A stretch of 24,178 bases of DNA from a virus (taxonomy: Duplodnaviria > Heunggongvirae > Uroviricota > Caudoviricetes). The position numbers were made by a program. Below are positions 6,001 through 9,000 of the stretch, in pieces; position 1 is the first letter of the stretch; every line of letters starts with the position of its first letter. Where the stretch lies: IMG/VR virus record IMGVR_UViG_2537561992_000036. One strand, 5' to 3'.

Positions 6001-9000
6001 CTCGCGTTCTTCTTTCTCTGCAAGCCATATACAATGGCGAAATTCCTTTTCCTCTTTCGTTTCCTGCGGTAGCGACATTATCCGATCGTAGTTTTTTCTG
6101 AATTTATCCAGCACCTCCGATACGGAATTGCCGGAACAGCGGCGCGCGTCATCCGCACCATACAGAGGCGCTGGCATAATTAAATCCTTATTTTTCTAAA
6201 TCAGAATGGGATGGAATCGTCGTATACAGGAGTGTTCTGCTGGTTACTACTTTGCTGCTGCGGGCCATTTCCTGAAGCTGCAAATCCAATCTTTGCATTC
6301 AGTAATTCAAGAGTGATTGATTGACCATTTTGCCCCTGATAAACATCAACCCTGATGTTTTCTCCGGTAATTTCCACAATGCCACCTTCAACAAGAACAC
6401 TACGGTAGTAATCCGCTTGCGCTCCCGGCTTGGCAAATACAACGGCGCTGTAGTTTGTCCATTCTTTCTTTTTTGTCTGGCGATCGTAATACTGAACGCC
6501 AGCACGGATGTTGAATCCGATATTTTCCCCGGTCTGAAACTCTCTTGCGGGCTTGTTTAGTCTTACAGTAATCGAATGTGCCATTAAGCAGCAGCTCCTT
6601 CTAATTCGTCTCGTCTGATGTTGTAAACGTCCTGCGCTTTGTGCTGCTCCGGTGTGCCTTCGAGCATCTTCCACGCTTTGGCGAACGCCTGTTTAAGCTC
6701 TTCTACGGTGTTTTTCTGCATTGCTGCGTCAGTGAATGCTTTTAGAACCTGTTCAGGTGTAGGTGATGGTTTTGATTGCTTTGCTGCTGCGTTCTGCTGA
6801 TGTTTATGCTCGTCGGTATCTGCATCTTTCGCATCATCAATGCCGAATAAACCATTGAGGCAATACTTGCGTGCATAAGAGCTTGTAGCTCCCGTAACTT
6901 GTGCAGAATCCATTCCTTTCTTGCTTTCTTCCTCTCGTGCAAGAGCGGTTGCCGTATGACTGTTTTCGCCATCGGTAATAGTTGCCGTGGCTTTCACATA
7001 ATACCGATCACCAATCAACACAACTTCATCGCTGATTGATAAAAACAGGCCATTCAGTAACGGCTTAACGCCTTCAAGAATATCTTCGCAGCTTCTGTAT
7101 TTATATTTGCCGAATGAGTTGTACTGATTCTTTGGCGCGTTCAGATTCTCCTGAATAGCTGCCAGTCTTGCGTAAAATTCTTTGCTCATATGATTGTTCT
7201 CAGAATGGACACGGCCCAAGGAAATAACGCTGATTTAATACTTCGACTCGGGACAAATTAAGGCATACCCGCATTCCTTCGCGGTCACCATTATGGCGAT
7301 ACCAGAGAGCTTTCTGCGTGTACATGCGCCTCTGTAACTTGCTCTCCTTCACTGTGGTTGCAAGTGACATGAATATCTCCTTCGTTACCGATTAATTCTT
7401 TCATCTGACGAATGAATTCTTCGTCTGACCAGTTATCTGTAAAACTCATTTCCTGCGATAACACGGAAGGTTGATAGCTGATTTCATCGCTTTATTTGCT
7501 TCAAGCCACATTTTTGAATCACCAATAAATCGGGCTATTACTGCCTTGTTCTGTGCAGCACGAAGCATCTGGTGATTGATGGCTATTTCATTGCGCATAA
7601 TAAGACCTCAACTCTTTTCCATCCGTCACGTAATTTACGGGTGATTCGTTCAAGTAAAGATTCATTTAATTGGAAGGCACCCATGCGAGCGCCTCCCGCG
7701 ATTGCGTAAATCATGGGTGGTTCCTTATGTTGGTTTTATTAGTAGGTTATTTTTGTTGCGAATAATTCGCCTTTTACGATGGCTGTTATGATATTTTTAG
7801 CAACATCTTCTGATGCGCCAACCTTGATAAGGTCAGCAAGTATTTTGTTATTTACTTCTTTCCGGTGAGCTTTATCCTTTGCTCTACGCTCTTCTTCGTC
7901 CTTGATTCTTTTTTCTTCTGCTATTCTGGCTTGCTCTTTTGCTTCAGCCTCGCGCAGGATTCGTTCTGCCTCCTCCTGTGCTTTACGGCGTTCTGCTTCA
8001 ATTGCCGCATGCTTTTCTCTTTCAGCTCGTTCTGCTGCCTCTTTTGCTTCGCGCTGTGCTCGTTGCTCGGCTTCAATGCGTTCACGCTCTGCACGTTCCT
8101 CTGCGGCCTTAGCTTCTGCTTCTCGCCTTGCTGCTGCTTCAATTTCGGCTTTTGCCTTTGCTTCGGCTTCAGCTCTGGCTTTCTCTTCAGCTTCTCTTTT
8201 TAAGCGTTCTTCATGCTCTCGCTTTTCCTGCTCCGCTTTGAGTCTTGCCTCTTCTCTTTGGCGGTCAAATTCGCGATCCATCAAAATCGCTATTTCATGG
8301 TCAGACTCAATTTGCTTTGCGAGAGCTTCAGCTGCTGCCTTAGCTTCTTCTTCGGCTTTAATCCGCGCCTGTTCTTCCTCATAATCAGTAAGAGGCTGGC
8401 GCGCCTTGGCTTTCAGTTCATCAAGGCGATCGCGCACTGTCTTGCGGTTAGCATCAATTAGCTTTGGAATTTCCTTCAGTTCAGCAACAAGGTCTTTGCC
8501 AAGACCATCGAGATATGTTTTCGTCTGCGCAACTTTATACGCCAGATAAGCGATCTCCTTTCTGCCCTTTGCCGTTGTGATATCAGGCACAAAGGACATA
8601 ACTTCACGTTCAACCTTTTGAAGAATTTCTTCAATCTGGTCGGCAGACTAAATTACAGTCATTGCATTTGCTTTTTCAATAACAACTAAATCTGTTACTT
8701 CACTCATATATCCTCCGTCAAAAAAATTGCCCTCACACTGGAGGGCAAAGAAGATTTCCAATAATCAGAACAAGTCGGCTCCTGTTTAGTTACGAGCGAC
8801 ATTGCTCCGTGTATTCACTCGTTGGAATGAATACACAGTGCAGTGTTTATTCGTATGCCTGTCTTTTAACCACATCAGGCTCGGTGGTTCTCGTGTACCC
8901 CTACAGCGAGAAATCGGATAAACTCTATTCACCCCTACAGAGAGAATGATGGAGATTCACCGATGAGTAACTGGTGGCAGGAACTATTACGTTTCTTCCT

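Follow-up and report, generated by a model that had tools for sequence, protein, structure and literature searches.

The region between positions 7739 and 8707 of the window (the whole 24,178-nt stretch of viral DNA analyzed in this study, IMG/VR record IMGVR_UViG_2537561992_000036) is very probably a pseudogene, in which an early-left accessory gene was inactivated by an amber codon at codon 20 in a decaying prophage. The frame of this gene runs from 8707 to 7739 on the minus strand and comprises 322 sense positions plus a stop codon, with the interruption at codon 20. Its features are as follows.

7739–8707, minus strand: the whole pseudogene, a 969-nt homolog of gene 33 of phage Sf6 (PHROG 1376)
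8711–8716, minus strand: GGAGGA, the Shine-Dalgarno sequence of the ancestral gene, from the sequence and the anti-Shine-Dalgarno duplex energy
8651–8707, minus strand: the ancestral start codon (8707–8705) and the 19 codons that are still translated, MSEVTDLVVIEKANAMTVI
8648–8650, minus strand: TAG, the amber codon at codon 20, which is CAG (Gln20) in the five intact alleles compared
8546–8548, minus strand: codon 54, TAT (Tyr), which encodes Ser in the five intact E. coli and phage alleles
7739–8599, minus strand: the residual open reading frame (ORF) of 286 aa from Met37 to TAA, from the ORF list

All coordinates that the sequence-only reading had given for the start signals and the amber codon were correct on the minus strand. 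The GGAGGA at 8716–8711 is followed by TAT and then by ATG at 8707–8705, which leaves a spacing of 3 bases, and TAG at 8650–8648 is reached after 19 codons. The same GGAGGA is kept in Sf6 and mEp043. The anti-Shine-Dalgarno duplex at ATG 8707 was −9.5 kcal/mol and ranked among the top 1.5% when all 925 ATGs on both strands of the window were considered. Past TAG, the first ATG in the same frame is at 8599–8597 (codon 37), 48 nt downstream of the amber stop, and the frame ends with TAA at 7741–7739. Its remaining 286 codons contain no further stop or frameshift. Compared with the same 925 ATGs, no recognizable ribosome-binding site was found before ATG 8599, where the duplex of −3.6 kcal/mol fell at the 25th percentile, not exceeding that of a random ATG. 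The earlier description of a 286-aa ORF in the same frame, with an ATG of its own but no obvious ribosome-binding site, was borne out by both the ORF list and the duplex energy. The exact 286-aa ORF was absent from a collection of 15 billion proteins.

A megablast search of positions 7700–8800 against phage genomes identified 35 records that span the region almost fully. Gene 33 of Sf6 (NP_958209, 322 aa) is the intact 969-nt equivalent. It is collinear with the window gene at 98% nucleotide identity, and the two differ at 19 codons over 969 nt without indels. Orthologs of Sf6 gene 33 were also found in mEp043, mEp234, HK544, Huey, Sf101, and IME10, and the intact 969-nt gene is annotated in the isolated phages mEp043, HK544, and Huey. 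The intact 322-aa versions of Sf6, mEp043, HK544, Huey, and many E. coli prophages, which are 97–98% identical, all share with the window the ATG start and the GGAGGA in front of it, and have CAG in place of its TAG. For instance, the DNA alignment showed TTT CAG in Sf6 and mEp043 but ATT TAG in the window and in a Stx1a phage; CAG was also found at codon 20 of four intact alleles besides that of Sf6. Thus, the proposal of a nonsense mutation in a gene of about 320 aa holds, and the amber codon is derived from the CAG of Gln20 by a C-to-T transition. Moreover, codon 19 (8653–8651) of the window is ATT (Ile), whereas intact alleles have TTT for a nearly invariant Phe, a T-to-A change. The substitutions leading to Q20* and F19I are three bases apart (TTTC to ATTT on the coding strand, window 8650–8653) and may have arisen in a single multi-nucleotide mutational event.

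Comparisons with more distant homologs addressed whether the 19 N-terminal residues are part of the protein, as a check suggested on the sequence alone, and the answer was yes. The conceptual translation was 97% identical to a protein cluster (P0001) at 100% coverage, and it matched PHROG 1376, which also contains the Sf6 ortholog, over residues 1–322 with E = 2e-110. Searching 5.8 billion proteins revealed full-length homologs, mostly of 322 aa, at 75–77% identity in Enterobacter, Cronobacter, Citrobacter, and Salmonella, and the homologs of these genera at 70–77% identity retain the N-terminus MSExTDLVVIE..NA..VF. In the alignment, M1, S2, E3, T5, D6, L7, V8, V9, I10, E11, N14, A15, and V18 were invariant and F19 was nearly so, while position 20 varied among Q, K, and T. 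The 19 N-terminal residues remained conserved in homologs down to about 40% identity. Residues 1–117 were further searched exhaustively with phmmer against 1.84 billion cluster representatives, which matched 4939 clusters at E ≤ 0.001, of which 3420 were at E ≤ 1e-10. All 150 alignments of the best 150 among these 4939 clusters begin at query residue 12 or before, near the N-terminus of the homolog itself, and none of these representatives starts at the equivalent of Met37. Homologs that begin at the equivalent of 8599 behind a separate leader, which would have contradicted the original proposal, were thus not found among the best 150. Judged from these alignments, the first 19 residues belong to the protein. 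The two segments of the frame are assigned to one gene because of this homology, not because of chance statistics.

Similar to Sf6 gene 33, the window gene possesses the Shine-Dalgarno sequence, the ATG, the position between a tL2a-like terminator and cIII in the pL operon, and cIII, kil, and erf downstream. The homology with Sf6 gp33 and PHROG 1376 extends over the full length, including the N-terminal domain, the coiled coil, and the C-terminal domain. Different from the Sf6-type relatives, however, the window allele has TAG at codon 20 as well as the private changes F19I, S54Y, A203E, R251L, and V315L, and it resides in a prophage without pL and N. The uninterrupted frame that starts from the conserved MSE..DLVVIE N-terminus is lacking. 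Given the TAG at codon 20, the window copy is therefore a pseudogene member of this family and not a functional one.

Codons of the window allele were compared with those of five intact counterparts, from Sf6, mEp043, and three prophages of E. coli. Nine codon changes are private to the window allele, six non-synonymous (Q20* and the five listed above) and three synonymous, whereas the intact alleles differ among themselves by 5 non-synonymous and 16 synonymous codon differences. The non-synonymous excess on the amber lineage is marginal (Fisher p = 0.042), as it is calculated from nine private changes. The extra substitutions are probably damaging. Ser54 was invariant in 23 diverse family members that are 33–58% identical to the E. 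coli protein, and S54Y is probably a second damaging change. Consequently, the full set of family-invariant residues of the N-terminal domain (D42, T45, G48, R49, S54, D67, G70, D85, R88, and E110) is not kept, with nine of the ten present in the window and Tyr in place of S54. Although the statistics are modest, taken together with S54Y they point to relaxed constraint on the amber lineage.

The amber allele is found in many independently assembled genomes. A 61-nt stretch centered on the stop matched without mismatch in 111 of 232 matching complete E. coli genome records. It is carried, among others, by many CDC isolates, by an O103 strain, and by the O26:H11 strains 11368 and H19. A search with the entire gene found it in 530 of 5426 genomes. 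In 115 records, identity to the amber allele reaches 99% or more, and the nearest intact allele is at 98.8%, which indicates one mutational event that was inherited clonally. In all three genomes inspected, RefSeq labels the locus as "cell envelope biogenesis protein TolA; internal stop" with a pseudogene flag. The finding is thus already known, as the NCBI/RefSeq annotation marks the locus as a pseudogene.

The allele is also found outside the degraded prophage. Four records of Stx1a-converting phages (LC744181-4) match the window at 100% identity along 4142 bases (window 4700–8841). The shared segment of at least 4.1 kb runs from erf to the tL2a region and includes the amber allele, upstream of which the four phages diverge and have an N of the 933W/H-19B type and a gene for a serine/threonine kinase (stk). 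In strain 97-3250, the prophage with the amber allele has retained cII, a cro-like gene, a LexA-family repressor gene, and stk, and its left arm contains the same truncated lar and ea22-like genes as the window prophage. Therefore, the amber mutation is in a left-arm module common to co-resident lambdoid prophages, and this sharing implies probable exchange or duplication of the module between them. For O26:H11, Stx1a phages have been described to recombine with other lambda-like prophages (PMC10042803). As the allele is found in prophages that keep cI, cro, and stk, its inactivation did not require prior decay of the prophage, and the amber allele is tolerated in more complete phages.

The same gene is also split in phage CUS-3, into ABQ88428 (116 aa) and ABQ88429 (214 aa). 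Different from the nonsense mutation at codon 20 of the window, the disruption in CUS-3 is a frameshift near codon 115, where the coiled coil begins. The CUS-3 match was 1103 nt long for a query of 1101 nt, and the two ORFs are at 395–745 and 720–1364 of the CUS-3 segment. The two partial families PHROG 17211 and 21365 evidently go back to this frameshift. The split is an independent event in an E. coli prophage and suggests a gene that is dispensable and prone to loss.

The flanks of the gene contain four features that bear on its expression.

8721–8748, minus strand: intrinsic terminator, a homolog of lambda tL2a, from the terminator scan, the lambda alignment, and the Sf6 label
7583–7714, minus strand: cIII, the next gene downstream in the leftward operon, from the RefSeq annotation of a matching genome
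8963–9168, plus strand: 5' remnant of sieB, the last immunity-left piece before the insertion sequence (IS), from the annotation of a matching genome and the lambda alignment
9177–10492, plus strand: IS3-family insertion sequence, from its ORFs and annotation, with an ALIL frameshift pseudoknot at 9517–9633

The terminator has an 8-bp G+C-rich stem, TTGCCCTC/GAGGGCAA (8748–8727), a CAGTGT loop, and a run of seven Ts. It had been labeled as tL1-like from the sequence alone, and this label was wrong. Window 8721–8852 corresponds to lambda 33925–34056, between ral and ea10, with 131 of 132 nt (99%) identical, and N is at lambda 35037–35438, so lambda tL1 was rejected. In Sf6, the terminator upstream of gene 33 is annotated as "homology to phage lambda; tL2A," and cIII, kil, erf, and ssb follow downstream of that gene. 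Given this label and the alignment to lambda 33925–34056, the terminator is a homolog of tL2a rather than tL1. Window 8856–8940 in turn corresponds to lambda 34396–34480, just upstream of sieB. At window 8852–8856, lambda 34057–34395 with ral and orf28 is missing, and the tL2a region directly adjoins what lies upstream of sieB. Over 48 nt, part of cIII is 100% identical to that of lambda. The window gene shares with the ea10 locus of lambda the genomic slot from tL2a to cIII and the flanking DNA; however, blastn detected no similarity between the window gene and lambda 33536–33904, the ea10 slot. The gene in the ea10 slot thus appears to be unrelated to ea10, as in mosaic replacement of one accessory gene by another.

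The whole window matched a prophage adjoining ybhC at 99.9% in 106 E. coli genomes. According to the annotation of the best match, the prophage has int, xis, a left arm in which several genes are truncated (lar and ea22-like), erf, kil, cIII, and the pseudogene. Beyond the pseudogene are the 5' fragment of sieB, the IS3-family element, and directly thereafter cII and a frameshifted replication gene, followed further on by P, ren, nin genes, a second IS copy, Q, and lysis genes. The IS at 9177–10492 occupies the place of the 3' part of sieB, N, nutL, pL, cI, and cro, and the annotation of this best-matching genome lacks N, nutL, pL, cI, and cro. Promoter scanning of 7500–9300 did not identify any sigma-70-like promoter on either strand. 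With pL and N lost, the gene is therefore left behind a terminator without a known promoter or antiterminator. The two IS3-family copies, 9177–10492 on the plus strand and 14121–15436 on the minus strand, are inverted and 99.8% identical, each with an ALIL pseudoknot. In strain 11368, the IS copy at 9177–10492 is absent, the immunity region is still missing, and an IS600 is found near erf instead. Finally, a gene for an LpxR-family lipid A deacylase is located at about 17503–18462 on the minus strand, between the nin region and Q, and looks like an intact cargo ("moron") gene. The pseudogenes around it include a frameshifted replication gene O, a Q-like fragment, and a frameshifted DUF6645 gene.

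AlphaFold2 modeled the intact protein with a mean pLDDT of 85, as an N-terminal helical bundle of about residues 1–115, a very long helix of residues 81–295, and a small C-terminal helical domain. Residues 12–20 and 22–38 form two confident helices of the N-terminal domain, and Met37 is within this predicted domain, at the end of helix 22–38.

The ancestor would have been an accessory gene of 322 codons in the slot from tL2a to cIII, belonging to the leftward (pL) delayed-early operon of lambdoid phages. Its transcription would have started at pL and continued after N-enabled read-through of tL2a, and its translation would have started from GGAGGA and ATG 8707. After the CAG of Gln20 became TAG, ribosomes would release a 19-residue peptide, and translation from Met37, which lacks a Shine-Dalgarno sequence and falls within the folded N-terminal domain, would be expected to give hardly any useful protein or none. 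An IS-associated deletion would have removed pL, nutL, N, cI, and cro and left the gene without a known promoter. The amber gene would thus be neither transcribed nor translated into a protein product. Through Rho-dependent polarity, an early nonsense codon lowers downstream transcription unless the polymerase is N-modified. Without N-modified polymerase, the amber codon might accordingly reduce the transcription of cIII, kil, and erf.

Both reinitiation and read-through are unlikely explanations for the allele. Reinitiation at Met37 would produce an N-terminally truncated but functional protein of 286 aa, and the downstream frame is indeed open for 286 codons with an ATG only 48 nt past the stop. 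However, that ATG has no Shine-Dalgarno sequence and pairs like a random ATG, and starting there would remove residues 1–36, which are conserved across the family and contribute two helices to the N-terminal bundle. The truncated protein would also carry Tyr at the invariant position 54, and none of the best 150 homologs starts at this point. Persistence of the allele in prophages that retain repressor and cro is consistent with reinitiation, but the window prophage has neither pL nor N to transcribe the gene, and reinitiation has only a slim chance of being the correct explanation. In E. coli, near-cognate decoding of UAG during nonsense read-through inserts Gln. As the ancestral residue is Gln, read-through by a suppressor tRNA or a near-cognate tRNA-Gln might restore a low, regulated level of the full-length protein. 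Nonetheless, only one near-clonal allele has the stop, whereas all other homologs have Q, K, or T at this position, which is not the conserved stop of a recoding site. Scanning the window revealed neither a tRNA gene nor an Rfam recoding element near the stop, as the two ALIL pseudoknots of the IS3 elements were the only matches, and thus neither a suppressor tRNA nor a cis-acting RNA signal. The 91 nt around the stop had a fold z-score of −1.99, and the stop hairpin is equally possible in the intact alleles. The flanks are the same as those of the intact alleles, so no dedicated signal has evolved, and the additional damaging substitutions point to relaxed constraint. Read-through is extremely improbable as the explanation.

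There is a very slim chance that the amber allele of the Stx1a phages and the cI-positive prophages yields a protein that is either reduced in dosage by read-through or truncated at Met37, and that it is retained since full expression is costly to the lysogen or phage. Practically negligible is the probability that the stop results from an error of sequencing or assembly, or that the 19-codon ORF is a designed leader peptide apart from the main gene. Only the bare look of a short ORF ahead of a long one speaks for these two. An error was rejected, as 111 complete-genome records, which come from many laboratories, and 4 phage records contain the identical allele. A leader peptide is contradicted by homologs that are uninterrupted and conserved across the junction, and the homologs starting from Met37 with a ribosome-binding site of their own that it requires were not found, with 0 of the best 150 representatives and no Shine-Dalgarno sequence at that ATG. 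The preferred reading is thus a pseudogene inactivated by the amber codon.

The family to which the intact protein belongs comprises 4939 clusters at 50% identity (E ≤ 0.001) from phages and prophages, is not covered by a Pfam model, and goes by the name "TolA" in RefSeq. In its members, an N-terminal domain of about 115 aa and a C-terminal domain of about 45 aa that ends in I-x-Y are conserved, and the coiled coil between them differs greatly in length. The middle part varies through in-frame deletions and insertions, and the lengths of the polypeptides ranged from 245 to 333 aa. In Pfam searches, the Sf6 protein had no match at E ≤ 1, and 23 diverse members had none either. NCBIfam gave two noise matches only (E 0.014–0.044, far below the cut-offs), PADLOC gave only noise, and none of the three PHROG families matched has an assigned function. 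Similarly, a profile search of PDB sequences returned only coiled-coil noise (best E 0.006). Foldseek searches with the AlphaFold2 model yielded no match at E ≤ 0.001 in the PDB and only unnamed members of the same family in BFVD. The genomic context of two remote homologs contained only small unannotated phage early genes. Literature searches identified no paper that names the PHROG ids, NP_958209, or Sf6p33, and nothing relevant on Sf6 gene 33 and TolA-like lambdoid genes. The likeness to TolA is limited to the composition of the long Lys/Glu/Ala-rich helical segment, which resembles that of TolA domain II. Different from TolA, the window gene is in the context of a phage early operon. An N-terminal membrane anchor of the TolA type is lacking, as MSEVTDLVVIEKANAMTVFQSADQIEE is broken by charged residues, and the N-terminus of the model consists of short amphipathic helices packed in a bundle. 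Identity with TolA was rejected, since neither Pfam nor NCBIfam gave a TolA match even at permissive thresholds. The name is a compositional artifact of the Lys/Glu/Ala-rich helix.

The region is thus a nonsense pseudogene of an ordinary kind within a degraded lambdoid prophage of an O26:H11-type Shiga-toxin-producing E. coli. Its TAG allele is a clean clonal marker of the left-arm module of the prophage, including the exchange of this module with Stx1a phages. Together with the independent frameshift of CUS-3, the amber allele means that the gene is dispensable. Moreover, it draws attention to a very large family of phage proteins that has no Pfam model and carries the misleading name "TolA."
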